A DNA stretch of 64,000 bases from Promethearchaeia archaeon (GCA_046483985.1 JAWOCD010000090.1:1-64000), one strand, 5' to 3'. Shown: positions 89-61,472, counted from the stretch's first letter. Notes: generated by a model from the sequence alone, not told the origin. A program made the numbers and translations.

Positions 89-267
89 AATATTATGGTA
101 AAGTTTCTCACATCTGCTGACCTATCGCATCAACCCTCTTTGAAGGAGGAATCCTTTCTAAAGCAATGGAACGGATTTTCTACGACACACAACCCTAAGA
201 TATGCCCACCAGCTAACGCTTAGTGGACTCGTAGGAATCCCCGTCCTTTAGGGCGGGGAGACTTCAA
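89..267 (+). mobile_element. IS200/IS605-family remnant E1: tnpB C-terminal fragment plus omegaRNA-like right end (family A)
   Basis: Frame from 89 reads NIMVKFLTSADLSHQPSLKEESF..., matching the tnpB tail at 44583-44790. Ends with hairpin GAATCCCCGTCCTTTAGGGCGGGGAG followed by ACTTCAA. 193-267 matches 26175-26249 at 74/75 nt. Confidence 0.85.
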
Positions 268-306
268 TAAAAAATTAATCTTTTAATTTGATATGTATTT
301 ATCTTA

Positions 307-951
307 GTGATTATGATTATTTTTATCCTTGTATTATCGGTTCTCATTCTGAGTCTTATTAGCGTCTTTCTTTATAAAAGAAATCTTATAAAAAACAGAA
401 AATATTATTTTTTAGGATTATGCGGATTGATCATTACTTATTTACTCCTTCCTTTTTACGATCCTTTTCAGTTGCCCGGCTATCTTGCCTCAGTCGTATT
501 GGGAAGGACCTTCCCTTCCTATTTTGGATTTACCGCTGGAATCATTGCTGGAAATTGTGCAATCTATGCTATTCATATTTTTGCAAGTAGTGCTTTAGAG
601 AAACGCAAGAGAGGGCATCTCTTAAAAATTCAATTCATTCGGTCTGGACAATATTCCAAACGGCGACATCCGCTCTATATATCTTCTTATTTTTTGGCAT
701 TGTGCTATGCTGTGGTAATGGGATCAGTCGTACTTGTGATTATTGCTTGTTCTTTCCTTATCCTATTTTATTTTAATGCTAAATACATTGAAAAAAATGT
801 CTTGTTAAAAAAATTCGGTGGCGACTATAATAACTACCAGAAGGAAGTCCGAACCTTGTTTTTTACCAAAGATTTCCTAGTTTTAACCGTGGTTATCCAC
901 ATTTTGTTTCTAATTGGCCTCGTGGGAGTCATTTTTTTCCCTATGCTCTAA
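307..951 (+). CDS. Membrane methyltransferase, ICMT/PEMT-like family
   Basis: Multiple TM segments; G-x-Y-x-x-x-R-H-P-x-Y motif (GQYSKRRHPLY); C-terminal EK..L..KFG..Y..Y. Confidence 0.75.
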   Translation: MIMIIFILVLSVLILSLISVFLYKRNLIKNRKYYFLGLCGLIITYLLLPFYDPFQLPGYLASVVLGRTFPSYFGFTAGIIAGNCAIYAIHIFASSALEKRKRGHLLKIQFIRSGQYSKRRHPLYISSYFLALCYAVVMGSVVLVIIACSFLILFYFNAKYIEKNVLLKKFGGDYNNYQKEVRTLFFTKDFLVLTVVIHILFLIGLVGVIFFPML

Positions 952-1008
952 ATTAATTAGTTATTAATTATATTTTTAAATTTCGGACTTTCTTTTTTAA
1001 ATACAGAA

Positions 1009-1713
1009 ATGACATTTGAGAAATATACATCGAGATATGAAGCGGGAACCCGTTTGGTTAACTTTCTTCATTCAGAAGATATATCGTTATATCAATCTAT
1101 TCAAGAAAATCCACGCGATTATTTTTGTTTTGCCATACCCAATGGAGGTGTCCCCGTAGCTGAAGGTTTTTGTAGTCAATTAGATTTATTTTATGATTTA
1201 ATAATTGTTCGAAAAATCAAAATTCCCAGCAATCCAGAGGCGGGATTCGGCTCTATTGCTACGGACGGAACCATTTTAATTAATAACCCTTTATTGAACC
1301 AATTAAATTTATCAGAACATAAAAAAAAGAGAACGATTGAATTAACCAAGCAAGAGATTCATGAAAGATTAGATTTTTATGATAAAAATCAAGGATACAT
1401 CGAGAATTTGAGTCCTAAGATTAAGAAAAGAGAGATTTTTCTTATTGATGATGGATTAGCATCTGGATTTACTATGAGGGCAGCGATAAAAATGGTCAAA
1501 AAATATGAACCAAATCAAATCTTTATTGTTGTACCAACAGCTCCCCAAAGAACAGTGGAAAAAATTAATCCAAAAGTAAAAAAGATTTTTTGTCCTAACA
1601 TCAAAAATGTGTTCAGATTTGCAGTGGCAAGCGCCTATAAACATTGGTATGATCTCTCTGAATCGGAAGTCTTAGAGATTTTGAATCAATCTGAGCATTA
1701 TCAAAAGGCTTAA
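1009..1713 (+). CDS. Type I phosphoribosyltransferase family protein
   Basis: AIPNGGVPVA, VRKI..P.NPEAGFG and PRPP loop LIDDGLASGFTM. Confidence 0.9.
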   Translation: MTFEKYTSRYEAGTRLVNFLHSEDISLYQSIQENPRDYFCFAIPNGGVPVAEGFCSQLDLFYDLIIVRKIKIPSNPEAGFGSIATDGTILINNPLLNQLNLSEHKKKRTIELTKQEIHERLDFYDKNQGYIENLSPKIKKREIFLIDDGLASGFTMRAAIKMVKKYEPNQIFIVVPTAPQRTVEKINPKVKKIFCPNIKNVFRFAVASAYKHWYDLSESEVLEILNQSEHYQKA

Positions 1714-2031
1714 AAACAAACTAAAATTAGAAGTAGTTTAATTTCAACCCACAAAATGGAAGATAAATAATTGTAATACTTTTTGATTTATCAAGTTAGG
1801 ATCTTAATTTTTCTCAAATTCTTTGTTTTCTTACGCTAAAACAGTTCAATTGGTAAGGAAAAAAAAGCAGACAATATTTGACTGGTTTTAAAATGTTTGA
1901 TTTCGTAAATTTCTAAAATTTGAAAGAAAAAATTCCGATCAACCGAAACAAATAAATTGAACAAATAAAATTATATAATTAGAATTATAATAATTATAAT
2001 ATAATAATTGATATAATAACGTAAAATTGGA

Positions 2032-2856
2032 TTGATCACATTGGTTTCAGAAAAAAAGAAACTGAAAAAAATTATGTCCTTTCTAAGAAAGAGCTTATCC
2101 CAATTAAACGATGATTTAAACGAGACGGTTGAAGGGATTAATTCTTTCTTATCATCATTACAAAAAGCCCAAAAAGATCTTGAATCAACATCAAAAGGGG
2201 TATTAACAGAAAGTACTTCTTCAAAAAAGGTGGTTTCTGCTGGAACTTCTGATACTAAGGCGAAAGCCGCAAATACTTTGTTTAGTTTACTCAGAGGAGG
2301 TAGTGGTGGTGGAGAAGCAGCAAAAAGCTCCGCACCCCAAACTGCATCGGCCAAGGGAGGAGTTCCGAAGAAGAGTGGCCCACCCAGTAAAAGCGGAGGC
2401 CCACCCAGTAAAAGCGGAGGCCCACCCAGTAAAGGGGGTGCTCCCAAAAAGGGAGGAGTTCCGAAGAAGAGTGGCCCACCAAAAAAGCCAAGTGGTGGAG
2501 GCCCACCTAAAGCACCATCTTCTGGTGGGAAAAAAGGGAAAAAGGGAAACTTACCTCCTGCGCCAAAATTACCACCAGGTGGAAAAAAAGGCGGAGGCCC
2601 ACCTAAAGCACCATCTTCTGGTGGGAAAAAAGGTGGAGATGGCGGGGGCGTAGTGAAAAAACCATCATTTGCTAAGAGATCAGGTCCCCCAAAAGCACCT
2701 GGAGCAAAGCCTCCTGGTGGAGGGGGTGGAGATGGAGAAAGTGGTGGTGCACCGGAAAAGGTCGCACCAGAGTCAGGGGGAAGCTTAAACTCGCTAAGAG
2801 ATGAAATGCTTGATGAGCTGGGAAGATTGAGACGTATAATGAGAGGCGAAGAATGA
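2032..2856 (+). CDS. Pro/Gly/Lys-rich low-complexity protein with N-terminal coiled coil and WH2-like helices
   Basis: Helical N-terminus, GGPPK/S repeats, ordered C-terminal helix SLRDEMLDELGRLRRIMRGEE; T-rich tract after the stop. Confidence 0.75.
   Translation: MITLVSEKKKLKKIMSFLRKSLSQLNDDLNETVEGINSFLSSLQKAQKDLESTSKGVLTESTSSKKVVSAGTSDTKAKAANTLFSLLRGGSGGGEAAKSSAPQTASAKGGVPKKSGPPSKSGGPPSKSGGPPSKGGAPKKGGVPKKSGPPKKPSGGGPPKAPSSGGKKGKKGNLPPAPKLPPGGKKGGGPPKAPSSGGKKGGDGGGVVKKPSFAKRSGPPKAPGAKPPGGGGGDGESGGAPEKVAPESGGSLNSLRDEMLDELGRLRRIMRGEE
2377..2433 (+). repeat. Coding tandem repeat, 21-nt unit GGCCCACCCAGTAAAAGCGGA x2.7 (GPPSKSG)
   Basis: Seen directly; further internal duplications encode KGGVPKKSGPP x2 and GGPPKAPSSGGKKG x2. 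Confidence 0.95.
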
Positions 2857-2920
2857 TCCATTGATCTCTTTCATTTTTTAACCAATTCCTTTTATTCTTC
2901 TATTTTAATCTTAATTTTAC

Positions 2921-2962
2921 CACTAGAGTGCGAGGAAGCACCGTCCTTTAGGGCGGTGATGA
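2921..2962 (+). mobile_element. IS200/IS605 left-end remnant E2 (LE family 1)
   Basis: TTTAC|CACTAGAGTGCGAGGAAGCACCGTCCTTTAGGGCGGTGATGA, near-identical to 50055 and 61424. Confidence 0.8.
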
Positions 2963-3196
2963 TTCTGTCTATTCTAATTACCCAATAGACAATTAAACAA
3001 GCATAAATTTTTATTCAGATTGCGGACTCTTTGGTATCGATTGGAGCCAGTCCATAGCCGTAAAAATATGAATTATTATAATTCATATTACAAATGCATT
3101 TTAACATTTAACTAAGATTTCATTGGTTCCAAAAATATTCTTGGAATTGATATGGTATAGGTATTTAAATGGAGAAAATTTAGAATACATAGAAGC

Positions 3197-3946
3197 ATGA
3201 CTTCAGAAAAATTTATTATGTGTGAAGAGAAAAAAATTCCAATCGTGGTTCCCAAACGAATTATGGTCTTTGCTCCACACCCAGATGATGAAATTGTATC
3301 TTGTGGGGGGACAATTTTAAAATATCAAGACTTAGGTTCGGAAATCACAGTGGTTATTGCGACTGCGGGTTTGGGCGGTTATGCGAAGGAAAGAAATAAA
3401 CGATCCATTAAGAAGAAAAGAAAAAAAGAATCCGAGAAGGTAGCGGAAGCTTTAGATTGCGAGTTAATTGAATTGGGATATACAGATATGAAAGTTAATC
3501 GAATAAAAATTTCACGCTTCACCAACTTAATTAGAGACCATCGTCCCCAAGTCATATTTATGCCACATTATTCAGACTTCCATCGAGTCCATCGGAATAT
3601 TTCCTTAATTGTACGAGAAGCCATATATCATTGTGCTACTGGAAAAGCGTATGGTGGACATGAGCGAAATTGGACACCTTTTGGAGTATACTATTATGAG
3701 TCTCCTTCGTGTAAATTTCAATATATTGAGGGCTCAGTATTTGTAGTAGTAAACATTGTAGCATTCTGGGAACGCAAGAAAGAAATCTTTTCCCAGATAT
3801 ATACCTCTCAAAAATCTGTATTAGCCCGGGTAATCGATTGGGCGGAGGATACTGCAATTTTACGGGGAAATGAAATTAATGCACCCTATGGAGAGGCATT
3901 TATTCCCGAAACTACCTATACTCCGCTAAAAATTTTATTATCATAA
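3197..3946 (+). CDS. PIG-L/LmbE family N-acetylglucosaminyl deacetylase
   Basis: APHPDDE motif, GGT, DFHRVH second motif, C-terminal EAF. Confidence 0.9.
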   Translation: MTSEKFIMCEEKKIPIVVPKRIMVFAPHPDDEIVSCGGTILKYQDLGSEITVVIATAGLGGYAKERNKRSIKKKRKKESEKVAEALDCELIELGYTDMKVNRIKISRFTNLIRDHRPQVIFMPHYSDFHRVHRNISLIVREAIYHCATGKAYGGHERNWTPFGVYYYESPSCKFQYIEGSVFVVVNIVAFWERKKEIFSQIYTSQKSVLARVIDWAEDTAILRGNEINAPYGEAFIPETTYTPLKILLS

Positions 3947-4023
3947 ATGTAACATAAACCATATAAAGATTATTTTTTATTAATTCTTATAAACTTCAAG
4001 AAATAACATAAAAATATTAAAAG

Positions 4024-5142
4024 ATGGGAAATCAAACTATTATTTTAGACATCGGTCAGTTTTCCTCAAAAGTGGGGTTTGCAGGGTCAGATAGTCCGAG
4101 TGAAGTCTTTTTCACCTTGCTTGGGAAACCTAAATATCAAAACCTCGATGTGCATTATGGGGGCGGTTCAGATCAAGAAATCTATGTCGGAAATGAGATT
4201 CAATCATTTGGGCTTTATAAATTGTTCCATCCAATCCAAAACGGAAGAATTGATGATTGGAATTTGTTTAAAAAAATCGCGGATTATATTTTCTATGTCT
4301 TACGAGTTGATCCCACATTAGTTAATATCTTATATGCAATCCATCCCTTATTCCCGCAACAAAATTTAGAAAGATTATTTGAACTTTTTCTGGGAGATTA
4401 TCAATGTATGGCATTTTATCCCATCTTAGATTCTATGTTAACACTCTATTCTGGCGGATTCGAAACGGGATTAGTGGTCGAGATAGGTGATAGTGGAACC
4501 CGGATTGTTCCCATCTATGAAGGCTATAAGTTAGAACACGCCATTCGGATAACCAACATTGGAGGCAAGGTGTTAACTCAACGGATGGAAGAGTTACTGG
4601 GGGATATTGGATTTTCCAGCGACTCATCCCTCCGAAGAGAGCTTGTCAGAGCTTTAAAAGAACGAGCCTGCTTTGTTTCTTTAGATTACAAAGAAGACAA
4701 AAAACGAGGTCAAGAATATAAAAAACAGTATTCAATGCCCGATGGGAGCACTCTTATGCTTTCCACTCAGCGATTTGAAGTTCCTGAAGTTTTATTTAAT
4801 CCTAGCCTTATAAATTCCGAAGAACCACCTCTACAAGAAGCCATCATGGATTCGATTGCAGCATGTGATATTGATATTCGTTCTGAATTGTTAAACAACA
4901 TTTTTCTCTCTGGAGGAAGTTCCATGTTCCCGAATATTAAATCTCGAATGTATTTAGAGCTTGAATTAGAACTCGCTCGTCGAGAAAAAAAGGATCAGTC
5001 AGTCAGAATTATCGCGCCAAAAGAACGTACCTTCTCTGTATGGGTAGGAGGTTCAATCCTCGCAATGATTCCGGAATTTTCGGAGAATTGGATTACCCGT
5101 GCTGAATATTACAATGAAGGAATCCCAGAGGATTTGTTATAA
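4024..5142 (+). CDS. Actin-related protein (Asgard actin family, divergent)
   Basis: IILDIG..SKVGFAG, PI.NGRI.DW, TGLVVEIGD, VPIYEGY, LKER.CFV, Y.MPDG, RFEVPEVLFNP, LSGGSSMFP, SVWVGGSILA. Confidence 0.95.
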   Translation: MGNQTIILDIGQFSSKVGFAGSDSPSEVFFTLLGKPKYQNLDVHYGGGSDQEIYVGNEIQSFGLYKLFHPIQNGRIDDWNLFKKIADYIFYVLRVDPTLVNILYAIHPLFPQQNLERLFELFLGDYQCMAFYPILDSMLTLYSGGFETGLVVEIGDSGTRIVPIYEGYKLEHAIRITNIGGKVLTQRMEELLGDIGFSSDSSLRRELVRALKERACFVSLDYKEDKKRGQEYKKQYSMPDGSTLMLSTQRFEVPEVLFNPSLINSEEPPLQEAIMDSIAACDIDIRSELLNNIFLSGGSSMFPNIKSRMYLELELELARREKKDQSVRIIAPKERTFSVWVGGSILAMIPEFSENWITRAEYYNEGIPEDLL

Positions 5143-5155
5143 TACCCTTTTTTAT

Positions 5156-5286
5156 CATTAAAGCCAAAAGAATACCGCCCGTTCAGGGAACATCATTTCG
5201 TGGTGGAGAACCACCCCGTATTACCTTGTGTCTTTATTAAGTATTAGGTAATACGAATCTCACGCCTTCAGGCGGGAGTAGTTTAA
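5156..5286 (+). mobile_element. IS200/IS605-derived MITE/PATE E3 (LE family 2 plus RE family B), ~130 bp
   Basis: TTTAT|CATTAAAGCCAAAAGAATACC... ; stem CGTATTACCT/AGGTAATACG; end GAATCTCACGCCTTCAGGCGGGAGTAGTTTAA. Confidence 0.8.
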
Positions 5287-6302: not shown

Positions 6303-6325
6303 TTTTAGTAAACCTCTTTTTTTTC

Positions 6326-14495: not shown

Positions 14496-14723
14496 TCAAT
14501 CTTCACTAATTTCGGCTGTGTAGTGAGGAAAAATTTAAAGATCTTTCCAATTAGGAAAAAATATTTACACTATTATAAAGTTTAATTTCATTATAATAAA
14601 CTTTTTTTCTTATTTTTTAATTTCATTTATTCCTTCTTTATGATTTTTGTGTACTTACTATATAAAATAATTAACAAACATTATAAATTCTGATTGCATA
14701 ACAAAATTCAAGCTTAACCAGGA

Positions 14724-14888
14724 GTTAAGCCTAATGATAGAACCTTTCTCTGCTCTGAATGTTAATATAAGCAAGATAGAGATGTGGTTGGAAGCATTAA
14801 TATACTTCGTAATTATAGGAAGAAGCAGAACCTTAATTTACGGTTGGAGAACCAACCTATATTGTCTAATGTAATGATCACGCATTAG
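14724..14888 (+). pseudogene. tnpB: tnpB C-terminal remnant (zinc finger half plus RuvC-III)
   Basis: Reads VKPNDRTFLCSEC*YKQDRDVVGSINILRNY...ITH*, matching TnpB F.C..C....DRD...A.NI; premature TAA at 14763. Confidence 0.85.
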
Positions 14889-14927
14889 AGAATATGAATC
14901 TCACGCCTTCAAGCGTGAGTAGTTCAA
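14809..14927 (+). mobile_element. IS200/IS605 right end / omegaRNA-like region E4 (family B)
   Basis: About 95% identical to 16389-16507; ends CTCACGCCTTCAAGCGTGAGTAGTTCAA; TCA at 14924-14926 is the stop of the convergent gene. Confidence 0.85.
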
Positions 14928-16096
14928 TCCTTCAGTCTTGAGGACGCTTTGCAAAAAGGACAGACTTTTTCTCTTGCAAAACTTTTTTTAAGGCAATCAA
15001 CATGGAAATAATTATCGCAAGCGTCACACTTATATACATATACATCTTCAGAATCATCAAACATGATTCCACATTGAGGATGACCGCAAACTGCAGTCAT
15101 GATTTCTCCCGCTTCACTTGCAAATTTAACTTTTTCTATTATGTTAACGTTGTCTGTATCTGTACCTGTTTTTCTTTCTCTATGAATTGAAAGGGGGATT
15201 TTTAGCAAGTAATAACAGAACGGACATCTTAAAACAAGATAATTACCGTTTTGTTCCGATTGTTGTTGCTCGGCCCATTGTATTGCACAATGTAGATGTA
15301 TTGGCTTGAGACAGTTGGGACAAAACCGTCCACATCCATAAAACCCAGTTTCGCAGACCATACATCGTTCTGAATGACAAATAGCGCAAGTTAAATCCTC
15401 AAAATTAATGTTTGCTTTTTGCTTTTCGGTTAAATCTTCGGGCTTTAAGAGTTCGGAGGCGATATCCTTACTCATCTCATCAAGCGTATCCTCTTTGGTG
15501 TCGGAGAAGATATTGGAGATTTTTATTTTCTTTTTGGCGGCTATTTTCTCTATGATGCTTTCATATTCGAGTTCATCTTGAATATAGTAATTATTTCCCC
15601 CGGTAATTTCAACGACTCTTTTAAGGATATTTCCCGAAATAATTCCCTTTCCAAATCTTAAGAAATCTATTATAATTCCCAAATCATTTGCCGCTTTTGC
15701 GAATTTAATAGGATTTGACATCTTAGGATATATATACCCATCGGAGATGACAATAATGCGAAAGAGTTTCTGACCGATTTTTCTTTTTTCACGAATAATG
15801 GATTTTACTGCTTTATCTAATGGAAAGCGCGTTTTACCGATAATCTCTGCCTCTTTATAAATAAAATTCTTAATTGTTTGGTAATCTCTGAAGTATTCTT
15901 TTAGCTCATATGTGACATCGGAATATAAAATCACAGAAAATCGGTCATTTGGATCAACTTTGAGCTTTTTTTCGATTATATCCTTTAAACTTTTTAATTC
16001 CCAGTAAAGACGTCGTTTATCTAAGAGATCTCTTCTGAACGAAGAACGAGAAATATCAATTAAAAATAACGTATCTTCAGATAATTGCTTAGAAAT
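14924..16096 (-). CDS. vWA domain plus two Cys/His zinc-finger (RING-like) domains, TFIIH p44/Ssl1-like; probable ATT start
   Basis: The frame stays open upstream of the called GTG (15934) and encodes EDTLFLIDISRS (MIDAS DxSxS). No ATG/GTG/TTG occurs before the upstream TAA. AGGTG lies 7 nt before ATT at 16096. Also IIVISDG, CAICHS..FCPNC..HLHC..W..CPFC, YKCDAC..FHVDC..CPFC. Confidence 0.85.
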   Translation of the reverse strand: MSKQLSEDTLFLIDISRSSFRRDLLDKRRLYWELKSLKDIIEKKLKVDPNDRFSVILYSDVTYELKEYFRDYQTIKNFIYKEAEIIGKTRFPLDKAVKSIIREKRKIGQKLFRIIVISDGYIYPKMSNPIKFAKAANDLGIIIDFLRFGKGIISGNILKRVVEITGGNNYYIQDELEYESIIEKIAAKKKIKISNIFSDTKEDTLDEMSKDIASELLKPEDLTEKQKANINFEDLTCAICHSERCMVCETGFYGCGRFCPNCLKPIHLHCAIQWAEQQQSEQNGNYLVLRCPFCYYLLKIPLSIHRERKTGTDTDNVNIIEKVKFASEAGEIMTAVCGHPQCGIMFDDSEDVYVYKCDACDNYFHVDCLKKSFAREKVCPFCKASSRLKD

Positions 16097-16212: not shown

Positions 16213-16507
16213 CATAAAAGCAAAAGGAACCATCATCCTTTAGGATGGAGATGAATTTTGCGTTTAACTCACTAAATATCTTAAGACCATATATTTAAAT
16301 AGGTCGATATCCATATTTTTAAATAGACCAATTTCTAACTTATAATTATACAATGCTTCGGACTAATACCCTAGCATTAGTATAGTGTGTAATTATAGGA
16401 AGAAGCAGAACCTTAATTTAGGGTTGGAGAACCAACCTATATTGTCTAATGTAATGATCACGCATTAGAGAATATGGATCTCACGCCCTTAGGCATGAGT
16501 AGTTCAA
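16213..16507 (+). mobile_element. Internally deleted tnpB element E5 (LE family 2, promoter-like tract, tnpB start and tail, RE family B)
   Basis: TTTAT|CATAAAAGCAAAAGG..CCTTTAGG..TTTTGC left end; TATA-like TATTTAAATA; short ATGCTTCGGACTAAT; 119-bp right end shared with E4 ending GTAGTTCAA. Confidence 0.85.
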
Positions 16508-18421: not shown

Positions 18422-18723
18422 CATTAAAGGCAAAAGAATACCCCGTCCTTTAGGGTGATGGTGATTTTTGCTCTCATTTTACCCTAAGAACCGAGAGTTC
18501 AGAGTTCGGAATCGAGTTAATCGCAATCAATGTTTCCCATACAGTATCTACTTGTCCAGAGTGTCAATCTAAAGTAAAACCTAAATTTTCTTAAAAAGTA
18601 TAATCAAGTTTATTATCCCTTCGGGGACGATCATTTCGGGGTGAGAACCACGCCGTATTGTCTAATGTGTGTATTAAGCATTAATGCGTATGAAGCTCAT
18701 GCCTTTAAGGGTGAGTAGTTCAA
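18422..18723 (+). mobile_element. Internally deleted tnpB element E6 (LE family 2, tnpB fragment, RE family B)
   Basis: TTTAT|CATTAAAGGCAAAAGAATACCCCGTCCTTTAGGG left end; 18502-18582 reads EFGIELIAINVSHTVSTCPECQSKVKP (TnpB G.....V....TS..CP.C); end GCTCATGCCTTTAAGGGTGAGTAGTTCAA overlaps the HEAT gene stop. Confidence 0.85.
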
Positions 18724-19220
18724 GGGTATTTCTCTTTAAAGATACTTTCAATGGTTTTATCTTTGGTTTTTTCTTTTTCCAATATCTTCTCCCACTCGGG
18801 TTCAATAATGTCAAATGCCTCTTTAGCTAGCTTCTTTAAATCCTCATCAGAAGATCTCAAAAATGGTCCAATATACGGTAACGCGCGTTTGTCTTTCAGA
18901 CGCGTCAATGATTCAATAATATACTTAATCCGGAACTTATCGCCCTTAAATTTGTCTAATTCTTCCTTCAATTTTTCAATTATTCGCATTGTTGCTCGTG
19001 GATCACCTATTCTTCCAAGAGCTTCAATAATACGGTTTACCACCAGGTGATCCTCTTCTTTTCTTAAAGCCTTGCATAGGAGGTTTGTTGCTCTCTTGTC
19101 TTTTAAATATCCCAATTTTCTGGCTGCTTCCGCCCTTTCTTGCCAATCATCATGATGAAATACATTCCTTATTAGCGAATTATACAATTTATTCTGCTTA
19201 TGCCATTCTTCTGGGACCAT
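18720..19220 (-). CDS. HEAT/PBS-lyase repeat protein
   Basis: R.EAARKLG, IIEALGRIGDPRA repeats. Confidence 0.9.
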   Translation of the reverse strand: MVPEEWHKQNKLYNSLIRNVFHHDDWQERAEAARKLGYLKDKRATNLLCKALRKEEDHLVVNRIIEALGRIGDPRATMRIIEKLKEELDKFKGDKFRIKYIIESLTRLKDKRALPYIGPFLRSSDEDLKKLAKEAFDIIEPEWEKILEKEKTKDKTIESIFKEKYP

Positions 19221-26169: not shown

Positions 26170-26249
26170 CTAAGCCCTAAGATATGCCCACCAGCTAACG
26201 CTTAGTGGACTCGTAGGAATCCCCGTCCTTTAGGGTGGGGAGACTTCAA
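26170..26249 (+). mobile_element. Minimal IS200/IS605 right-end/omegaRNA-like element E7 (family A), ~80 bp
   Basis: 74/75 identity with 193-267; preceded by TTTAC; TCA at 26246-26248 is the stop of the GTPase gene. Confidence 0.85.
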
Positions 26250-27745
26250 TTATTTCTTTTTTCATGTTTAATGAATCTATCCGCGGCTATTTTGATATCC
26301 TCAAATGATAAAGGTCTATCCAAGTTTTCTTGCAATTCCTCTATAAATTGCTGACATAAATCAATTTCCAACTGGGCGTCTTTAAGTTTTAACACTTTTT
26401 GTAAAGCAACAGAGAGATTCTGTTCACTTTTAAGACTTTCAATACGCTCTGCCTTGCTTTTTTTCGTTTGTGGAGATTTCTTGGTTGTTGGAATGTTAAA
26501 CTTTATATCATTTTTAGTCAGCTTTTTTTTGTCTTGTTTACCTTTCTTTTTTGGTTTGGATTTCGGTAATTTTTGCTTTATTTTCGGTTTTTTCGGTTTT
26601 AATTTTTTGTTTTGAGGTCCTTTTTGTTTTCCCTTGGTACTTGGAAGGGCTTTAACTTTAATTTTGCCAGAAAACTTTTTTTGGTCGGGAGCGGAAAATT
26701 TTTTCTTTCGCTTCAAATCTTTCTCAAGTTCTATTTGTTGCTCTCTGCGCTTTTTAAGTTTTCCTAATTTGTTTTCAAATTGGTTAAGTAACGCAAAATT
26801 TTGATACTCATTGGAAATCTTAATAAGTTCTTTATATTTCTGTATAGCTCTCTTCAAATTATCGTTCTCTTCCAGATCTTTAGCCTCTTTCTTTAAATCT
26901 TTAAAATTCTCGGGTAATTGCTCCTTGAATTTTAGTGCGTTCCGAATATGATTAATAAGAGTTTCTTTCGCATTTGGAGAATCGAGGGAGAACGGTTGTA
27001 TTTCCTTAATCTTTAACTGATTTTTGATTTGCCTTATGATGTCATTGTCTGTTAAATCCCTTTTATTTGCTAAGATCAACAGTCTTGAATATTTCCCATC
27101 TTTTTTGGTAAGATTAAGTAAATTGTTTAGGACTTTTAAGTTGTAATTTGAAGCGTCAAAAATGAAAATAATTAAATCTGCACCGCTAATATGTTTTGAC
27201 CATAATAAGGAAAAATTATCATCCAATTGAAAATCCCATACTTCAAAACTGAGTTTATCGATTGTGATGGGACTTTTAACAGCGAAATTCATAATAGATT
27301 TTTGCTTTTCTGATTTAAGAAGGTGAAAAAGAGTTGTTCTCCCCCCATCTTTTGGACCCATAATCGCAATTTTGGAAAGCAAGGATTGTTGTTTCTCATA
27401 TAAGAACTCTATAAACTCCTCCCTTTCTTGTTGGGATTCATTGATGGTTTCAGGGATTGGAAAGCTAATTTTAAACTTTTTTATCGTTTCTGTAATAATT
27501 TCTTGGAGATAATTAAGTTTATCTACTGAATCGGCAACAAATACAAAATAAAGAGAACCTTTTCCTTGATGGTATATCATATGATCCGATATTGGTTGTT
27601 TGAAGGTCTTTCCGGGGGTGGGCAATTCGAGATAATTTTGCAGCATATTCTTCATTTCCTTTATCTTTTCCATCCCCAATCCTTTTGCGAGGGTACAATT
27701 GAAGATAATCTCTTTGTTATGAAATATAATTAGTTGCCGAAACAT
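26246..27745 (-). CDS. Longin-like domain fused to degenerate Arf/Rab-like small GTPase, helical and Lys-rich C-terminus
   Basis: N-terminal MFRQLIIF...LYFVFVAD longin pattern; G1 GPKDGGRTT, G3 WDFQL, ADLIIFIFDAS, G4 ANKRD. Confidence 0.8.
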   Translation of the reverse strand: MFRQLIIFHNKEIIFNCTLAKGLGMEKIKEMKNMLQNYLELPTPGKTFKQPISDHMIYHQGKGSLYFVFVADSVDKLNYLQEIITETIKKFKISFPIPETINESQQEREEFIEFLYEKQQSLLSKIAIMGPKDGGRTTLFHLLKSEKQKSIMNFAVKSPITIDKLSFEVWDFQLDDNFSLLWSKHISGADLIIFIFDASNYNLKVLNNLLNLTKKDGKYSRLLILANKRDLTDNDIIRQIKNQLKIKEIQPFSLDSPNAKETLINHIRNALKFKEQLPENFKDLKKEAKDLEENDNLKRAIQKYKELIKISNEYQNFALLNQFENKLGKLKKRREQQIELEKDLKRKKKFSAPDQKKFSGKIKVKALPSTKGKQKGPQNKKLKPKKPKIKQKLPKSKPKKKGKQDKKKLTKNDIKFNIPTTKKSPQTKKSKAERIESLKSEQNLSVALQKVLKLKDAQLEIDLCQQFIEELQENLDRPLSFEDIKIAADRFIKHEKRNN

Positions 27746-35011: not shown

Positions 35012-35034
35012 CGATCTGCGAAAGAAGTCTTCAA
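35012..35034 (+). mobile_element. 23-bp IS200/IS605 footprint E8 (LE family 3 tip fused to TTCAA right-end tip)
   Basis: TTTAA|CGATCTGCGAAAGAAGTCTTCAA; compare TTTAA|CGATCTGCCAAAGAATTCCCC at 47975. Confidence 0.55.
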
Positions 35035-40720: not shown

Positions 40721-41863
40721 TTAGATCTGGTAATTTCTAATTGCTTCAACCATGGCAAGGATGTTATCTGGTGGCTGGTCTAAAAGGAAATTGGTAGCAC
40801 CTGGAATATAACCGTGCGGTCCGAGAGCATCAAGGGATTCTGCGATGGATTCCTTGACTTCTTCTGGCGTCGCGTATTTCAGTAGGTTACTGTCGTCAAT
40901 CGTCCCAACCAGCGCGATATCTTCTCCATATTTACGTTTTAATGCTGGAAGATCATTATTAAAAGGCTTAAGTGATTCTATTCCGTCAATTCCAATTTCC
41001 ACAAATTCTCCGAATAATTCACCAACATTTCCACAAGAATGCAATAAGAATTTTGCCCCCGCTTCATGAGCGATTTGTACATGCTTTACCAATGTGGGTT
41101 TGACTAATTCACGCCACATTTCCATGCTCATTTGCAATCCCGAGTTATATCCATAATCATCCCCCACCATTATCACTTTCGGTTTGGCATATTTTACTAG
41201 TTTTTTCATTCCGTCAAGGGCAAAATTACTGTAAAAGTCTACAATCTCATGAAGAAACTCGCGGTCTTTTCGCCAAAACTTAGCAATGTTAGCATAACCA
41301 ATCCCGAAATGTAAATTCTCCCATGGCCCTGTGAGTCCCACTGAGACAACGAGGTTATATTTTTCTTCACAGACTTCAATGATTTTTCCATACCGTTTAA
41401 ATTCTTTTTTAGAATAGTGTATGTCCTTTTCCATGTACTCTTGAATCTGTTCTTTAGTGGTAAGTCCTGGCTTTAAATACCACCAATGGGGAATGGGCAT
41501 TTTTTCCTCCTCATTTGGAGGTGTATATGAGGAGAGCCGGTTGGCAACTTTAAATCTCCCTCCATGCATCTGACCCGGTTCGTTATAATCATCCAACCAA
41601 GTCATTTGTCCAAGACTGGTAATCCATGTAAGATCAATTCCCAGTTTCACGGAGAGGGGAATATTCACTGGGCATAACCAAGGGAGGTCGTCTTTTTTAT
41701 ATTGAGTAAACTCTTCGTAGGTAAAGCCGATTTCTGCATAAAATCGCTCCATAAAATCCCAATCTCCCCCAAGACAAAATGTAGGCACTTGTTCTGGGAT
41801 CTTGCATTCTAGTGCATCCTGGACAATATCCCATGCATCATAGTCTTTTGTTATATTGCACAT
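40721..41863 (-). CDS. Uroporphyrinogen decarboxylase (MtaA/CmuA-like) family protein
   Basis: GDDYG, LHSCG, GIDGI, G.IAL.G.ID, P.NI.AM; start placed at ATG 41863 overlapping the upstream gene's stop. Confidence 0.85.
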   Translation of the reverse strand: MCNITKDYDAWDIVQDALECKIPEQVPTFCLGGDWDFMERFYAEIGFTYEEFTQYKKDDLPWLCPVNIPLSVKLGIDLTWITSLGQMTWLDDYNEPGQMHGGRFKVANRLSSYTPPNEEEKMPIPHWWYLKPGLTTKEQIQEYMEKDIHYSKKEFKRYGKIIEVCEEKYNLVVSVGLTGPWENLHFGIGYANIAKFWRKDREFLHEIVDFYSNFALDGMKKLVKYAKPKVIMVGDDYGYNSGLQMSMEMWRELVKPTLVKHVQIAHEAGAKFLLHSCGNVGELFGEFVEIGIDGIESLKPFNNDLPALKRKYGEDIALVGTIDDSNLLKYATPEEVKESIAESLDALGPHGYIPGATNFLLDQPPDNILAMVEAIRNYQI

Positions 41864-44582: not shown

Positions 44583-44790
44583 TTGAAGCCTCCCCCAAAG
44601 GAAGGGGATTCCTCAGTCCACTAACCTCTCGCTGATGGCTACATCTTAGGCCTGTGTGTCGTGAAAAACTCTCTCCAGCTATCCAGAAAGGATCCCTCTT
44701 TCAAAGAGAGTTGATGCGAGAAACCAGCAGACGTAAGAAACTTGACCAAGATGTTAACGGCTGAATTCAAGTCCCGGACTTCCTTCGCTC
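44583..44790 (-). mobile_element. IS200/IS605 remnant E9: tnpB tail plus omegaRNA-like right end (family A)
   Basis: Minus strand reads RDLNSAVNILVKFLTSAGFSHQLSLKEGSF (RuvC-III); ends GGAATCCCCTTCCTTTGGGGGAGGCTTCAA; homologous to 89-267. Confidence 0.85.
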
Positions 44791-46048: not shown

Positions 46049-46394
46049 TTTTTTACATATTGTTAAATTTTTAAATTGTTATTAGATAAATTTGTCTACT
46101 ATAATTTTTGTTATCCCTTAAACTTTTCAAATCATATAATCTGTTGATCTTCATATTTGAGCATATTTAATTACCCTAAAGGCTTCTTATAATAAAGATC
46201 CTTTAGAGAGGTCTATGATTGAACAGAGAATTTTTAAAAAATTTTTGTGATCTAGAAACGTCTAATCGATTCCTTGCCTTGAGACATCAAAAAATATTCT
46301 TTGTCTTTTTTCTCTCTAACCAAAACATTTTTCAATTAAGAATGCGAATAGGCTCTTTCTTAACCCATAAAATGGTAAAGATAATTAGCATGGA

Positions 46395-46467
46395 TTAGCC
46401 ATCGGTGGTAGTAATTGCGTAGCAGTTGCGAATGAGAAGCCACTGCTTTTAAGCGGCGGTAGTTTAC
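46395..46467 (+). mobile_element. IS200/IS605 right-end remnant E10 (family C)
   Basis: GAAGCCACTGCTTTTAAGCGGCGGTAGTTTAC hairpin end; TTA at 46464-46466 is the stop of the convergent gene; left boundary uncertain. Confidence 0.7.
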
Positions 46468-47967: not shown

Positions 47968-47979
47968 AAAAGTTTTTAA

Positions 47980-48027
47980 CGATCTGCCAAAGAATTCCCC
48001 ATCCCTTTAGGTTGGGGTGAATTTCGT
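47980..48027 (+). mobile_element. IS200/IS605 left-end remnant E11 (LE family 3)
   Basis: TTTAA|CGATCTGCCAAAGAATTCCCCATCCCTTTAGGTTGGGGTGAATTTCG. Confidence 0.7.
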
Positions 48028-48133
48028 ATATTATACAAACATTTTTATATTTGGGTCGCTCATTTTTAAATTCTTAACCATTTATAATTATGTAAAATAT
48101 GTAAAATAAGAAAAAAAAAGGAGTATTAACAGA

Positions 48134-50054: not shown

Positions 50055-50148
50055 CACTAGAGTGCGAGAAAGCACCGTCCTTTAGGATGTTAGGTCAGCA
50101 ATTCTCGATGAATTACGAATCTCACGCCTTTAGGCTTGAGTAGTTCAA
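50055..50148 (+). mobile_element. IS200/IS605-derived MITE E12 (LE family 1 plus B-like RE), 94 bp
   Basis: TTTAC|CACTAGAGTGCGAGAAAGCACCGTCCTTTAGG...GAATCTCACGCCTTTAGGCTTGAGTAGTTCAA. Confidence 0.85.
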
Positions 50149-53538: not shown

Positions 53539-53868
53539 TGACGGTTGAGATTTATACCCGCCCTTCTGTCTTACTTACGTCACCATAAGCAAGTGGAGCA
53601 TCCAACTAAGCGGCCTACCTAAAGCTCGTTCCAAGTTCTCATAGCTTTCATTTGGCCTTGCACCAAGGTCTCAATTCGTTCCAACCATTCCTTCTTGCGA
53701 TTTCCTTGGCTTATTTCCAAATCATTAATTTCTGCAAAAAGGCGGTGCCGTTTCTATTATTGAGACATGGTTCTCACCATAGTAACTTCCGTTACTTCTT
53801 GCTTGGAAATTGTGGGGCGAGGTTCCTCAGCGAAATTTTTCGCCGTTGGCTCCAAATCTCACACGTCA
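53539..53868 (-). ncRNA. rnpB: RNase P RNA (archaeal type)
   Basis: Minus strand: CR-I GAGGAACCUCGCCC, AGAAAC, UGGAAC, GGUGCAAGGCCAAAU, CCGCUUAG, CR-V ACAGAAGGGCGGGUAU. P4 ACC[U]CGCCC pairs with GGGCGGGU. P1 UGACGUGUGAGAUUU pairs with AAAUCUCAACCGUCA. Confidence 0.9.
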
Positions 53869-56538: not shown

Positions 56539-56583
56539 AGCAAAAATAAGCATTTTGGAAAAATTAAGGAAGAAATTTTATGA

Positions 56584-56925: not shown

Positions 56926-57606
56926 ATGAAGAAATTGTCAAAAGTACTCTTTGCGGGATTGGTGATTCTTTCGTTCTTCATGATGTTCGGCAATTCATTT
57001 GTAGTGGCTGCAGAGGATACTCAGGATGTCAATGGTGATAATGTTCAGAAAAATATTCAAGCAAATGAGTCCGTTCAATTTCGATTTCGCGAGAGAACAC
57101 AGATTCGAATAAGAACGAATGCCACTATGTCCGCTAATATTGATTGTGATGCACGACAAATTGGAAATAAAGACTTCGAGATAGATGTTGATTCGGAGAA
57201 GGATCTCGAGATGAACATGACTGCTAGAGAAGAGCAAGAAGAACTTGGGTTACAAAAAGGAAATTCCTACCAGATGAGAAATCGGAATCGATATCAATAT
57301 CAAGAAGGATTTGCCGTAAATATTTCAACGAACAGTACTGACGGGCTCAACGCAAAATTGAAACTCGAAAAAACGGAAGAGAATCAAAACTCAAAGTGGG
57401 CATACTATGATGAATCCGAACAAGAATGGGTAACGGTGGACACAACCGAAGAAGATGGATACTTGGTTGCAGAAACAGATCATTTCTCAACGTGGACTTT
57501 GCTTACTCCAGAAGATAATACATTGATCTATATCGGGATTGGGATTGGAGCCGCAGCCGCCGTGATCTTAGGCATTACGTATGTCATCATGAAGAGAAGG
57601 AAATAA
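56926..57606 (+). CDS. Secreted, C-terminally anchored surface protein with juxtamembrane HFS motif
   Basis: Signal peptide; WAYYDE...W...; ETDHFSTW; TM helix plus KRRK. Confidence 0.85.
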   Translation: MKKLSKVLFAGLVILSFFMMFGNSFVVAAEDTQDVNGDNVQKNIQANESVQFRFRERTQIRIRTNATMSANIDCDARQIGNKDFEIDVDSEKDLEMNMTAREEQEELGLQKGNSYQMRNRNRYQYQEGFAVNISTNSTDGLNAKLKLEKTEENQNSKWAYYDESEQEWVTVDTTEEDGYLVAETDHFSTWTLLTPEDNTLIYIGIGIGAAAAVILGITYVIMKRRK

Positions 57607-57687
57607 TTATTTTTTTTTAATAACCAAGTTTTTATTTTTTTATTTTATTTAACACTTACATTATCGATCTGTTATACTTAATTTGCT

Positions 57688-58950
57688 ATGGAAAAAACCA
57701 TCTCAGAACTTCGGAAAAGAAACATCATTTGTATTTTTACTATCTTATTACTTATTTTTGAATTTACTTTTTTGATGAGCCTTGTATTGGCAAGGGAAGA
57801 AGAAGTATCTGGCTATTCCAAAGAAGATACGATTCATTCTAATGAGAATGTCTTATATCGATTCTCCAATGATATCAACTTAGGAATGACTTCAGATGTA
57901 CATACAGAAGTAGATATCACGTATGAAAAGTCTATCCAAAATCGTCATGCCTCGATAATGATTCGAAATAATGAAACCGGCTCGAGTAATGATTCTCTCG
58001 CTTTAGATATTGACAATCGGGAATCAATGAAAGAAGGTTATGGATTTTCTAAGGCTCCTGACGCTCCTAAAAACAATAGAAAGCAATTTAGATACAGATA
58101 TAACTCCATTTTTCGCCTTACTTCAAACAGTTCTATTAATAAATTTACCTTCCGCTTCGAAAAAAATAGTCAATACGGCTTAGAGGCGGATAAAGGATAC
58201 ACTATAGCCGTATTTACAGAGGGGGGGGATTCATGGGAATCAATCTCAACGGAAGAGATTTCTGAGAATTCTACTACCTATTTGGAAGCCAGCTTTACAG
58301 ATATATCTTCAGACACCCAATATTATTTTACCGTATACGAAGAGGAGCAAGGAATATTTGGGTGGATATGGCCCCTTATTATTATTGGCATCATTGGATT
58401 GGTGGGATTGGTATTAATTCTTTCCAAAAAGGAATATATCCAAATTTTGAAACGTCGAACTACTCCAGTAGATAAGGGGTCACATAGATTATCGTTGGAA
58501 GAAGTGTTAGAAAATGAAAACCGCAGCACGATTATTGATTTAATTTTGGAAAATCCGGGAGTACATTTTAACGAACTCCTCAGAGAAACCGAACTTTCGC
58601 CGGGCAATTTAGTGTGGCATTTAGATATTCTAGAGAAATATGAAATCATTGGAAAAAAACATATCTCGAATTACGTAGTCTATTTTCCCTATTACCAGAA
58701 GAACCCTATTTCTAATTTGGATTTGAAATTGAGGAAAAGTGAATTAACCCTAAAAGTGTTGGAATTAATTGAAGAAAAACCAGGTCTATGGAATAATAAA
58801 ATGGCCGATATCTTCGATGTAGATCATAAGACCACGAAATACCACCTTGATAAACTCATGGAACTTAACTTAATTTTTGCGGAAAAAGATGGCCGAAAGA
58901 AAAAATATTATCCCAATTTGGAAAACGAATATTTCAATAATTCGGATTAA
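57688..58950 (+). CDS. Transmembrane one-component regulator: extracellular domain, TM, two winged HTH domains
   Basis: Signal peptide, TM WIWPLIIIG..., VLENENRS.I...I..NPG.HFNEL......G.L.WHL..L, second HTH YHL.KL. Confidence 0.88.
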   Translation: MEKTISELRKRNIICIFTILLLIFEFTFLMSLVLAREEEVSGYSKEDTIHSNENVLYRFSNDINLGMTSDVHTEVDITYEKSIQNRHASIMIRNNETGSSNDSLALDIDNRESMKEGYGFSKAPDAPKNNRKQFRYRYNSIFRLTSNSSINKFTFRFEKNSQYGLEADKGYTIAVFTEGGDSWESISTEEISENSTTYLEASFTDISSDTQYYFTVYEEEQGIFGWIWPLIIIGIIGLVGLVLILSKKEYIQILKRRTTPVDKGSHRLSLEEVLENENRSTIIDLILENPGVHFNELLRETELSPGNLVWHLDILEKYEIIGKKHISNYVVYFPYYQKNPISNLDLKLRKSELTLKVLELIEEKPGLWNNKMADIFDVDHKTTKYHLDKLMELNLIFAEKDGRKKKYYPNLENEYFNNSD

Positions 58951-59803
58951 GGATCTTAATCTCAGGAGCTTCATCTTCATATAAAAGTTCAATATCTTCT
59001 CGACTTAATTTTATATCAGCTGCCTCTGCATTGTCCTTAACGTGATTTAAATGAAAAGCTTTAGGGATAGTAATGACGTTTTCATGATTAATAAGCCATG
59101 CGATTGCGATTTGTTGGATGGTGGCATTATATTTGGATGCTAATGTATCAAGTTTTTTCCTTAACTCTTCGCTTAAGTCAGTATATCCGCTATGCCCCAG
59201 AGGACTGTAGGCGGTCATAGTGATATTGTGTTCTTGATAATAGGGAAGTGATTTATACATATGTTTTTGCTTGGTAAAGCTCGCATTGAGTTGATTGTTG
59301 ACTAGTTCCTCCTTTTTTAGAGCAGATTGGGCTTTTTTGAATTTTTTTATAGAAAAATTACTGACGCCGATATATCTCGTTTTTCCCTCATTAACTAATT
59401 CTTCTAATACCTTCATCTGTTTCGTGATGGAAACTAAAAAGTTGGGCCAATGAATCAAATATAAGTCGAAATATTTTATCCCCAATCGTTCGAGACTCTT
59501 TTCTGCGGCTTTTTTCATACCATGGTGAAAAATATGCATGGGAAATAATTTACTCGTTATAAATAGATTCTCTCTTCCATATTCTTCGATAATCTCGCCT
59601 ACTACCTTTTCAGCTTTTCCTAACCCATACATTTCTGCCGTGTCAATATGAGTCATTCCCAATTCAATCCCCTTCCGCAAGGAATCTTTCCATTGCTCGT
59701 AATATTCGTTATCCTTAAAAAATCGCTTTATCCCCCATGTTCCTTGTCCAAGAATGGGAATCTTCTCTCCCGTTTTTCCTAATTCCACATTTTTTATTGT
59801 CAT
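58934..59803 (-). CDS. Aldo/keto reductase
   Basis: LGQGTW, IDTAEMYG, FITSK, DLYLIHWP, YIGVSNF, AYSPL, IPKA. Confidence 0.95.
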   Translation of the reverse strand: MTIKNVELGKTGEKIPILGQGTWGIKRFFKDNEYYEQWKDSLRKGIELGMTHIDTAEMYGLGKAEKVVGEIIEEYGRENLFITSKLFPMHIFHHGMKKAAEKSLERLGIKYFDLYLIHWPNFLVSITKQMKVLEELVNEGKTRYIGVSNFSIKKFKKAQSALKKEELVNNQLNASFTKQKHMYKSLPYYQEHNITMTAYSPLGHSGYTDLSEELRKKLDTLASKYNATIQQIAIAWLINHENVITIPKAFHLNHVKDNAEAADIKLSREDIELLYEDEAPEIKILNPNY

Positions 59804-59989
59804 ATTACTATTTGATTTATTTACGCTTTTAAGTATTCTTTTTAGATATTATTAATAATTTTCTTTCATGAAGTTTTAAACCTAAAGACTTCAATTTGAG
59901 CCATAGCAAGGAAATTATCTTGGTTATTATTTTGCGATAATTTTTTTCGATCTAAGTAACCCCAATCTTCCCGAATATTAGGGAAATTA

Positions 59990-61288
59990 TTATCCCATGA
60001 AAAAGATAAGAACAAACAAAAATCCTATTATGCAAAGCATATTTATTAGTGTCATTAAAAACCCGACAACCAACAACCTTCGATAATTTAAATTTTTTAC
60101 ATGTGATTTTTCAGCAATTTCAAGCGTTGCCATATGAGCAATTGCCCCTTGCGGAATCAAGTTCCCTCCTATATGAATTCCAAAAAGAAATATAAAGAAA
60201 AGCGGATTTGCTGGCAGTCCCTCCGATATTAACGTATCTATAATCGGCAGAAAAATTAAGGTAGTTGGTGTGTTTGAAACAAAGGCAGACATTATGCTTA
60301 TGATGAAGAATAAAAGGATATACAACAAAATAGGTTCTAGCTTTCCAAAAGCGAACTGTTGGAATATATCTTTAAACCCCGCCTCTAAAAGACAGCCGAT
60401 TATAATATATAATGATATAAGGAAAAATAATATTTCCCAATCTACATCTTTTAACATATCACTCAAAGATTCTCCTGTATATCTCTTGTTTAAATATACG
60501 AGGACTAACGATCCAATTCCCGCCGTCAGATATAACAAGGGCAGAAATAAGAATAGGATGATGATAATCAAGATTGCAACAGTATTTAAGTAAAACATTT
60601 TTTTATTTTTTATCAAGACCTCGGAATCTATTAAATCTAACATAAATTCTTTCTGTTGAGGTTCTATGCTCGGTTCTTTACTAAGCAAAAATTTATCTAA
60701 TAAAAACATCATTAAAAAAAGTAGGATAAAAGAAAAAATCCAAAGATATTTGATAAAAAATGAAGTATCCAATCCGTAATAAGTTGAGATGATAATATTT
60801 TCACTACTTCCAAACGGAGTTAGTATAGACCCAATTTTAACCCCTAGTGTCATTCCAATTAAATATGTGCCCGCATTTACTTTTAAGTGACGACAAAGAC
60901 GAATAATGACTGGTGCTAATATAAGAATTACCACCACATCACTTACAATTCCTGCTAATAAGGCGGTTAAGAGCATTAACAAAAAAAAGAAATATCTGAC
61001 TTTTCCCCTAACGATTTGGAATAATCTTACCGCCAGAAATTCTAAGATATTGGACTCGACTGCGATTTCTGTTATTAAACTCATACTTAATATGATTATG
61101 ATTGCTTGCCATTCGACATGACCAATAAACACGTCTAGATCTATCCCAAGAACCAAGCCAGTGATGGTCGCAGCAATAAACGCACCTAATAAGGAGATTA
61201 AAACAAAATCTACTCCTTCCATTGCGTAAGAGGCTAAAATAATCCCAAAAATAATAAATATGATAATTATAAGGGGGATATTCATCAT
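59990..61288 (-). CDS. ArsB/NhaD/SLC13 (ion transporter superfamily) permease
   Basis: GS.LTPFG...NII, VDWE.LFF, SAFVSNTP, GGNL.P.G. Confidence 0.88.
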   Translation of the reverse strand: MMNIPLIIIIFIIFGIILASYAMEGVDFVLISLLGAFIAATITGLVLGIDLDVFIGHVEWQAIIIILSMSLITEIAVESNILEFLAVRLFQIVRGKVRYFFFLLMLLTALLAGIVSDVVVILILAPVIIRLCRHLKVNAGTYLIGMTLGVKIGSILTPFGSSENIIISTYYGLDTSFFIKYLWIFSFILLFLMMFLLDKFLLSKEPSIEPQQKEFMLDLIDSEVLIKNKKMFYLNTVAILIIIILFLFLPLLYLTAGIGSLVLVYLNKRYTGESLSDMLKDVDWEILFFLISLYIIIGCLLEAGFKDIFQQFAFGKLEPILLYILLFFIISIMSAFVSNTPTTLIFLPIIDTLISEGLPANPLFFIFLFGIHIGGNLIPQGAIAHMATLEIAEKSHVKNLNYRRLLVVGFLMTLINMLCIIGFLFVLIFFMG

Positions 61289-61423
61289 AGTTCGGCAAGG
61301 AATTGACTGTTTTAAGTATCTTTTATTAAAAATTATTAATAATTTTTTTTAAACAAATTTCTTGATATTCAAGGGTTGATAAATTTTCTTCGTTAAATTT
61401 TCCTCGCCTATGGAATTTTTTAC

Positions 61424-61472
61424 CACTAGAGTGCGAGAAAGTACCGTCCTTTAGGGCGGTGATGAGTCGCAC
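61424..61472 (+). mobile_element. IS200/IS605 left-end remnant E13 (LE family 1)
   Basis: TTTAC|CACTAGA GTGCGA..ACCGTCCT TT AGGGCGGT..TCGCAC nested hairpin. Confidence 0.85.

Follow-up and report, generated by a model that had tools for sequence, protein, structure and literature searches.

Scattered through the intergenic spaces of one 64,000-nucleotide stretch of a Promethearchaeia archaeon draft genome (GCA_046483985.1, JAWOCD010000090.1:1–64000; contig C85:1–64000, hereafter the window) are 12 short repeats that are, very probably, non-autonomous or fragmentary descendants of several tnpB-bearing, IS608-like insertion sequences (ISs) of the IS200/IS605 family, and thus ordinary decay products resembling the palindrome-associated transposable elements (PATEs) defined in Haloquadratum walsbyi and other haloarchaea (PMC3119063). 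The assembly is a fragmented draft of 4.06 Mb in 128 contigs (about 34% G+C, 97% complete). A first reading of the window, made from its sequence alone (the sequence-only reading), had counted 13 intergenic remnants and had proposed covariance models of their right ends as a check. Blastn of the window against the genome as a whole gave a depth profile with 12 repeat intervals, every one intergenic, and end-anchored searches and the two covariance models that we built (R1 and R2) agree with this census: four miniatures with both ends, four lone right ends, three lone left ends and one 23-nt relic, or eight right and eight left termini with the relic included. What does not stand is the thirteenth remnant: a minus-strand motif match at 41801–41814 lies within a gene, lacks a hairpin and is due to chance, and a very degenerate right-end-like stretch at 46364–46467 (plus strand; GAAT..hairpin..TAGTTTAC; R1 22.4 bits, E 0.02), which shows no blast repeat depth, is a weak candidate. 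As that reading had stated, the window contains no intact tnpA or tnpB, the only trace found being a Zn-ribbon remnant at 14727–14804.

The left ends fall into three families, as had been proposed. The L1 motif, CACTAGAGTGCGAG, has three exact matches in the window against 0.09 expected; the bare L2 and L3 motifs (CATTAAAG.CAAAAG and CGATCTGC.AAAG) occur no more often than chance would allow, and it is the extension of their exact matches into alignments with dozens of genome copies that establishes these two families. Three right-end (RE) families were likewise recovered, RE-A (...GAGACTTCAA) and RE-B-alpha and RE-B-beta (...GAGTAGTTCAA), as was the predicted common hairpin, of the CCTTTAGG type, in both left and right ends. 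In all families an imperfect palindrome lies just inside each end and terminal inverted repeats are lacking, the arrangement that marks IS200/IS605 elements (e.g. CACCGTCC-TTTA-GGGCGGTG at a left end, CCCCGTCC-TTTA-GGGCGGGG and CTCACGCC-TTTA-GGCGTGAG at right ends). Across the genome, each of about 100 left ends lies 3' of TTTAC, TTTAT or TTTAA in flanks that are otherwise unrelated, and the tetranucleotide at the hairpin foot changes with the target (AAAG with TTAC, AATA with TTAT, AAGT with TTAA), its last base (G, A or T) being complementary to the last base of the target. At the right ends GAAT, which pairs with TCAA, stands 5' of every hairpin, and the elements end in TTCAA. Insertion is therefore 3' of a specific target, without target duplication and with cleavage specified by tetranucleotides. 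The element boundaries are fixed by an empty/filled pair, in which contig C115 reads TTTAA directly followed by CCTTCTAAG and contig C94 reads GACTTCAA followed by CCTTCTAAG. The filled site, an RE-A remnant at C94:109–276, and the empty site at C115:109100–109230 have about 100 nt of near-identical flank in common, and are either paralogous loci or a population polymorphism.

In IS608 of Helicobacter pylori, short sequences that lie 5' of the palindrome foot recognise the cleavage sites (PMC3201880), and the end anatomy described here follows this IS608 scheme. Further likenesses to IS608 (PMC3201880, PMC5027513) are the co-oriented tnpA and tnpB genes, duplication-free insertion 3' of a TTAC-type target, imperfect palindromes in subterminal position, guide tetranucleotides 5' of the hairpins (AAAG and GAAT), a right end in TCAA and a replication-linked orientation bias; the Asgard elements differ in having three target variants (TTAC, TTAT and TTAA), each with a matching guide base, and a TnpB of another class, described below. 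Neighbouring elements are co-oriented in 84 of 121 pairs genome-wide (p 2e-5; the two ends of one long element may have been counted separately), which fits the replication-coupled, single-strand insertion on the lagging-strand template reported for IS200/IS605 elements, with its resulting orientation bias (PMC5027513). In the window, 11 of the 12 elements lie on the plus strand.

The ends also bear on how the elements sit among genes. The target TTTAN holds the complement of TAA and the terminus TTCAA the complement of TGA, in the same register, so insertion at a stop codon regenerates a stop and is almost scarless. The terminal TCA supplies the stop of a convergent open reading frame (ORF) of at least 100 codons at nine of 106 right ends, whereas only 0.7% of TCA sites taken at random do so; in the window it provides the TGA of ORFs 14924–15934 (at 14924–14927), 18720–19220 (at 18720–18723) and 26246–27745 (at 26246–26249).

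The parent of the RE-A copies is present in the genome. IS-A, at C97:1–1760 (minus strand), comprises an L3 left end, tnpA, tnpB and the start of RE-A, and the C-terminus of its TnpB is identical to the product of window positions 89–154; a search for a cognate tnpB elsewhere, suggested by the sequence-only reading, thus succeeded for this lineage. Many contigs break inside IS-A, which indicates that several near-identical full-length copies were collapsed by the assembler. The genome holds 15 matches to PF01797 (Y1 TnpA), and those that can be placed adjoin L3 left ends. The HUH motif and catalytic tyrosine of tnpA are recognisable; all six resolved copies have stops, frameshifts or deletions, and the others are cut by contig ends.

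The IS-A nuclease, TnpB-A (C97:3–1229), is the sole full-length TnpB in the genome and aligns over its full length with ISDra2 TnpB. More than 1000 homologues were found at E<=1e-10, mostly in Promethearchaeota-type assemblies, with the nearest relatives in Promethearchaeota/Lokiarchaeota assemblies, which points indirectly to an Asgard host, and in 10 of the 10 homologous loci fetched tnpB occurs without tnpA. In 17 family members (TnpB-A and 16 homologues) the canonical RuvC-II glutamate is an invariant glycine (IIVGDLN), and D347/E348 (IDES), invariant in the family alignment, could provide the substitute acid. A TnpB class with a 'rearranged RuvC-II, E to G' has been described, whose members are predicted to rely on another glutamate (PMC10691335); the TnpB-A sequence matches this class, and we infer that the enzyme is probably active.

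No such parent was found for RE-B: the 97%-complete assembly holds no intact B-type tnpB, only fragments of at most about 190 residues. One related genome (G015) carries an intact 416-residue B-type tnpB that overlaps the RE-B scaffold and ends at TAGTTCAA, and RE-B-like scaffolds were found in three of the 30 relatives searched. The lineage supplies five of the eight right ends of the window, and the covariance models find 65 RE-B against 40 RE-A copies genome-wide.

The sequence-only reading held that the right ends are omega-RNA regions, and this is borne out by their overlap with tnpB, by their termini and by covariation in RE-A. In the intact relatives (C97, ten Asgard TnpB loci and the G015 B-type locus) the right end overlaps the 3' end of tnpB and runs to TTCAA or TTCAC. 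For RE-A we aligned the last 170 nt of ten TnpB loci from other assemblies (58–85% protein identity) with two RE-A copies of the window. The scaffold, of about 146 nt, contains five helices, which span about 135–258 in the window; 89.5% of cells are paired in this fold, against 35–52% with slid partners, and over 11 sequences or loci 16 of 30 pairs have changed on both sides, with none of 500 shuffles reaching the observed score. Such covariation marks the RE-A right end as a genuine structured RNA, of the kind that is omega-RNA in studied TnpB systems. No Rfam family matched the scaffolds at the gathering threshold or at E<=1, the only match in the window being archaeal RNase P (53542–53865), which marks the contig as archaeal. 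Model R2 gives only about 10 bits on RE-B and on the L1-type miniatures, whose scaffold thus differs from that of RE-A.

Whether the remnants themselves are under selection as RNAs is a separate matter, and here the earlier claim that stems vary while keeping their pairing holds at one level and fails at another. Between the RE-B-alpha and RE-B-beta consensuses, six of seven differing pairs stay paired, with compensatory differences at pair 29–68 (A-U to G-C) and pair 37–62 (U-A to C-G), which points to past selection in the presumed autonomous parents. Within the family, pairs break at close to the neutral rate. RNAalifold found no consensus structure in 30 RE-B copies, and with three helices then supplied by hand 89.7% of cells are paired, against 88.3% with shuffled partners; four pairs have changed on both sides, so that covariation is weak. 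Substitutions at paired positions keep the pair in a fraction of 0.32 in alpha and 0.37 in beta, where the observed mutation spectrum would lead one to expect 0.275 and 0.34, and 64 (alpha) and 24 (beta) substitutions break it. Within subfamilies the RE-B stems therefore appear, from these substitutions, to mutate close to neutrally.

The terminus, too, has drifted in places. In the copy ending at 5282–5286 and in five other RE-B copies (C107:54798, C59:4875, C73:3993, C45:36298 and C16:2237-type), TTCAA has become TTTAA, which is an IS-A target and transposon-adjacent motif (TAM), so that a loaded guide would meet a TAM beside its own flank. The persistence of these copies agrees with there being no active cognate nuclease for the RE-B lineage.

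How the remnants arose can be read from the copies of IS-A. Coverage along the element is U-shaped, reaching 42x in the first 50 nt and 50–53x in the final 50 nt but 1x midway, with a similar fall-off from both ends. The claim that the tnpB 3' region and right end are the part most often kept therefore has to be given up: the window holds eight termini of each kind, and the genome 106 right ends against 104–188 left ends (104 in a first census that missed the L2b type, 188 in a looser search that may include cross-family hairpin matches). Thirteen internal-deletion junctions in IS-A copies have overlaps of 0–6 nt or fall inside the left and right hairpins, which resemble each other; deletions of this second sort yield single-hairpin hybrids of 45–48 nt. 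One deletion derivative is present at two loci, on contigs C68 and C76, so some derivatives were amplified after deletion, presumably through TnpA acting in trans. Larger families tell the same story: MITE-alpha (a miniature inverted-repeat transposable element, or MITE, of about 270–295 nt) occurs in nine both-ended copies at different loci with a common internal architecture, and an L1-type family of about 224 nt in at least 10 copies. These two families and the four ORF-less, both-ended elements of the window are PATE-like MITEs, as had been suggested, with IS608-type end rules and no genes; the seven one-ended remnants and the relic are not.

We propose that the parents moved as single strands by means of a Y1 HUH TnpA, inserting 3' of TTTA+N and ending at TTCAA, with the tetranucleotide beside the left hairpin specifying the last target base. 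The loss of tnpA and tnpB would then be due to internal deletions, many of them at short microhomologies or running from a left hairpin to the similar right one. Copies left with both ends would be PATE-like MITEs that could still be mobilised in trans, some of them amplified as units, and those with a single end would be dead remnants. All would now be decaying neutrally in this genome; their persistence would be owed to short length, intergenic position and the frequent regeneration of a neighbouring gene's stop, and the right ends would retain a scaffold only because it forms part of every tnpB right end.

Several observations weigh against so simple an account. Intact copies of tnpA or B-type tnpB could be hidden in collapsed repeats of the 128-contig draft. 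The RE-A remnants are 97–100% identical to the master copy, which leaves the neutrality test powerless for that family, and the scaffold at 83–267 is complete, so that the resident TnpB-A could in principle load it. Column conservation in MITE-alpha is 0.89–0.94 at the ends and 0.50–0.83 in the interior; conserved ends fit the expectation for transposability and do not discriminate for or against RNA function. The right-end census, moreover, missed at least one variant (the right end of the L1-type 224-nt MITE), so its counts are lower bounds.

The sequence-only reading had gone further and proposed a dispersed repertoire of stand-alone guides used in trans, for which we find no support in the refuting checks that it had itself listed. 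The 16 nt past 105 right ends were scanned against the complete set of 84,211 sites adjacent to TTTA[ACT]; the histogram of mismatches (7/3/28/356) showed no excess of TAM-adjacent targets over shuffled guides (0/2.2/30/314), and the exact matches are self-hits at TTTAA-ending copies together with the single C94/C115 empty-site pair. Along with the neutral decay of RE-B and its merely fragmentary tnpB, this bears on the version suggested by work on Geobacillus stearothermophilus, where PATE-like elements 'often encode omega-RNAs' and would need TnpB in trans (Meers et al., PMC10055086). Under that model, omega-RNAs of gene-less copies, from both-ended miniatures and perhaps from scaffold-complete lone right ends, would load the TnpB of another element, which would cut the empty site, whether left by excision or present on a sister or variant chromosome, and the gene-less element would thereby be retained or copied. 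The conserved RE-A scaffold, kept whole and at >=98% identity at 83–267, a full-length TnpB-A of the E-to-G class that is predicted to be active (PMC10691335), an AT-rich, TATA-like box retained between left end and scaffold in the MITE families, the exact match of the C94 remnant's flank to the TTTAA-adjacent empty site at C115, and the expression of PATE-derived RNAs in Halobacterium (PMC4615843) all speak for it. Lone right ends, however, are not excisable and would gain nothing from homing; an intact cognate tnpB is missing from the assembly for the RE-B and L1-type miniatures, which score only about 10 bits with R2; RE-B copies decay neutrally; and six of six resolved tnpA copies are broken. 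We consider selfish guides of this kind unlikely, and think it similarly doubtful that transcripts of 83–267 and of the miniatures with a promoter still load into TnpB-A as a working set of trans-guides. Were it so, guides would bias how gene-less elements are inherited at polymorphic loci, of which C94/C115 is an example, a natural and testable case of PATEs acting in trans in the archaeal lineage closest to eukaryotes.

Domestication by the host would require a different partner. The only known case of TnpB-family guides regulating host genes is TldR (PMC10705468), and remnants that guide a nuclease-dead, TldR-like TnpB to repress host genes would at least have that precedent; several do lie 40–100 nt upstream of co-oriented genes (267 before 307, 16507 before 16561). 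Here we found no dead TnpB homologue, conserved guide–target pair or immobilised locus. Beyond TnpB-A the TnpB matches in the genome reach at most about 190 residues, and the top PF07282 match (contig C33), considered as a full-length dead TnpB, was rejected as a 102-residue C-terminal fragment. The flanks have no second TAM-adjacent site beyond chance, placement relative to genes is inconsistent (three of eight overlap convergent stop codons) and substitutions are neutral with respect to the stems, all of which makes such regulation extremely improbable. Only a little less remote is the idea that the hairpin units are maintained by the host and spread by a domesticated, single-copy Y1 transposase of the RAYT type (repetitive extragenic palindrome-associated tyrosine transposase), as in REP/REPIN systems. 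It would account for the many single-hairpin units of about 45–65 nt (L1 left ends and left/right hybrids) and for a 54-nt tandem array on contigs C125 and C127, but those Y1 matches that can be placed adjoin IS-A left ends and are themselves disrupted or truncated, a RAYT-like gene apart from them did not turn up, there is no sharp boundary between the units and longer IS fragments that contain tnpB remnants, and the units do not form inverted doublets. Decay of IS608-like parents remains the reading that we prefer.

The individual elements of the window illustrate this decay, and all but one lie on the plus strand. Three right ends belong to RE-A. The lone IS-A right end at 83–267 retains the last ~41 codons of tnpB (stop at ~209–211; 100% identity to TnpB residues 388–409 by tblastn), a complete scaffold (~122–267; R2 166 bits over 92–267) and TTCAA at 263–267. 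That at 26175–26249 consists of the last 75 nt only, a partial scaffold without helices 1–2 and the 5' strand of helix 3 (R2 46 bits). The minus-strand copy at 44583–44776, of RE-A type and diverged (~84%), keeps a tnpB 3' remnant (tblastn 83% to residues 381–409; R2 111 bits), with helix 3 and the terminal hairpin damaged. A lone RE-B-alpha right end at 14720–14927 (R1 116 bits) includes a tnpB C-terminal remnant with Zn ribbon and DRD motif, seen as the PF07282 match at 14727–14804 and within the stretch covered by tblastn of B-type TnpB (14724–14879). The both-ended miniatures are a 131-nt element at 5156–5286 (TTTAT target, L2 left end, RE-B-beta-like scaffold, R1 91.5 bits over 5192–5286, terminus at 5282–5286 mutated to TTTAA); a 295-nt copy of MITE-alpha at 16213–16507 (TTTAT target, L2b left end, TATA-like AT-rich stretch, RE-B-alpha scaffold, R1 112 bits), which has an internal 24-nt duplication of its own; a 302-nt element at 18422–18723 (L2 left end, RE-B-beta right end, R1 73 bits); and a 94-nt element at 50055–50148 (TTTAC target, R1 36 bits), a deletion derivative of the L1-type MITE family of ~224 nt. 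Lone left ends comprise two of type L1, at 2921–2967 (target TTTAC at 2916–2920, guide AAAG/GAAG, hairpin CACCGTCC-TTTA-GGGCGGTG) and 61424–61508 (TTTAC target, adjoining a TTTAT-type AT-rich box), and the L3 left end of IS-A at 47980–48054 (target TTTAA at 47975–47979), the same as in C97 and kept to just before the tnpA start. The relic at 35012–35034 joins the first 18 nt of an L3 left end, at a TTTAA target, directly to TTCAA, its hairpin deleted; its counterparts are 45–48-nt single-hairpin L3/RE-A hybrids at C2:21263–21308, C2:46943–46987 and C74:25373–25418.

A few further observations concern the setting of these elements. The copy at 83–267 lies 88 nt from the contig start, and the first 88 nt of the window, which are not IS-A sequence, recur unchanged at the end of C126 and at positions 2575–2662 of the short contig C31; the RE-A copies downstream differ by one base, which indicates an assembly branch representing two copies or two strain variants of one junction. 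The 54-nt array (G000:C127:1–170 and C125:1–110) has at least three to four copies of a unit in which the L1 left-end start and one hairpin are joined with the RE-A tail AGACTTCA and with GGGGTTAC; it connects an RE-A remnant to an L1 left end and is apparently the product of unequal recombination involving neighbouring right and left hairpins. Pairings of left and right ends more than ~600 nt apart (e.g. C126:20879–22311) enclose ordinary host genes and were rejected as elements. Direct repeats of 32–44 nt, tandem or interspersed, at 2353–2684 (GGxGGAGGCCCACCTAAAGCACCATCTTCTGGTGGGAAAAAAGG) sit within the overlapping ORFs 1971–2861 (minus) and 2032–2856 (plus) and suggest a low-complexity repeat protein.

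Haloarchaeal PATEs (PMC3119063, PMC4615843) are likewise archaeal elements in which IS200/IS605 left and right ends are fused without any gene between them; they too retain the right-end hairpin and the region of tnpB 3' overlap, and truncated tnpB remnants again keep the RNA region; Halobacterium salinarum expresses a PATE-derived RNA (VNG_R0052), sense overlapping transcripts (sotRNAs) at tnpB 3' ends and a 3' RNA from a 120-bp tnpB remnant (PMC4615843). The elements described here, known from sequence alone, differ in belonging to an Asgard-type phylum, in their unrelated sequence, in the several co-resident lineages and many one-ended remnants, and in their neutral decay. The ISGst families of G. 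stearothermophilus (PMC10055086) share tnpB families with common TnpA-type ends, few tnpA genes, gene-less derivatives and the same logic of TAM and transposon-encoded motif; there, omega-RNA expression and the activities of TnpA and TnpB were shown experimentally, whereas every tnpA copy that could be resolved here is disrupted, and two lineages are without an intact tnpB. Since the use of PATE omega-RNAs in trans has been proposed before (PMC10055086, PMC4615843), what is new is the host lineage; the guide-repertoire idea has received a worked negative test, and no new kind of system is revealed. Several TnpB-bearing IS200/IS605 lineages and hundreds of gene-less derivatives, with clean IS608-type end rules, are nevertheless co-resident in one Promethearchaeota-type genome, and the five-helix omega-RNA scaffold predicted for the Asgard clade of rearranged-RuvC-II TnpB could help the mining of compact RNA-guided nucleases.

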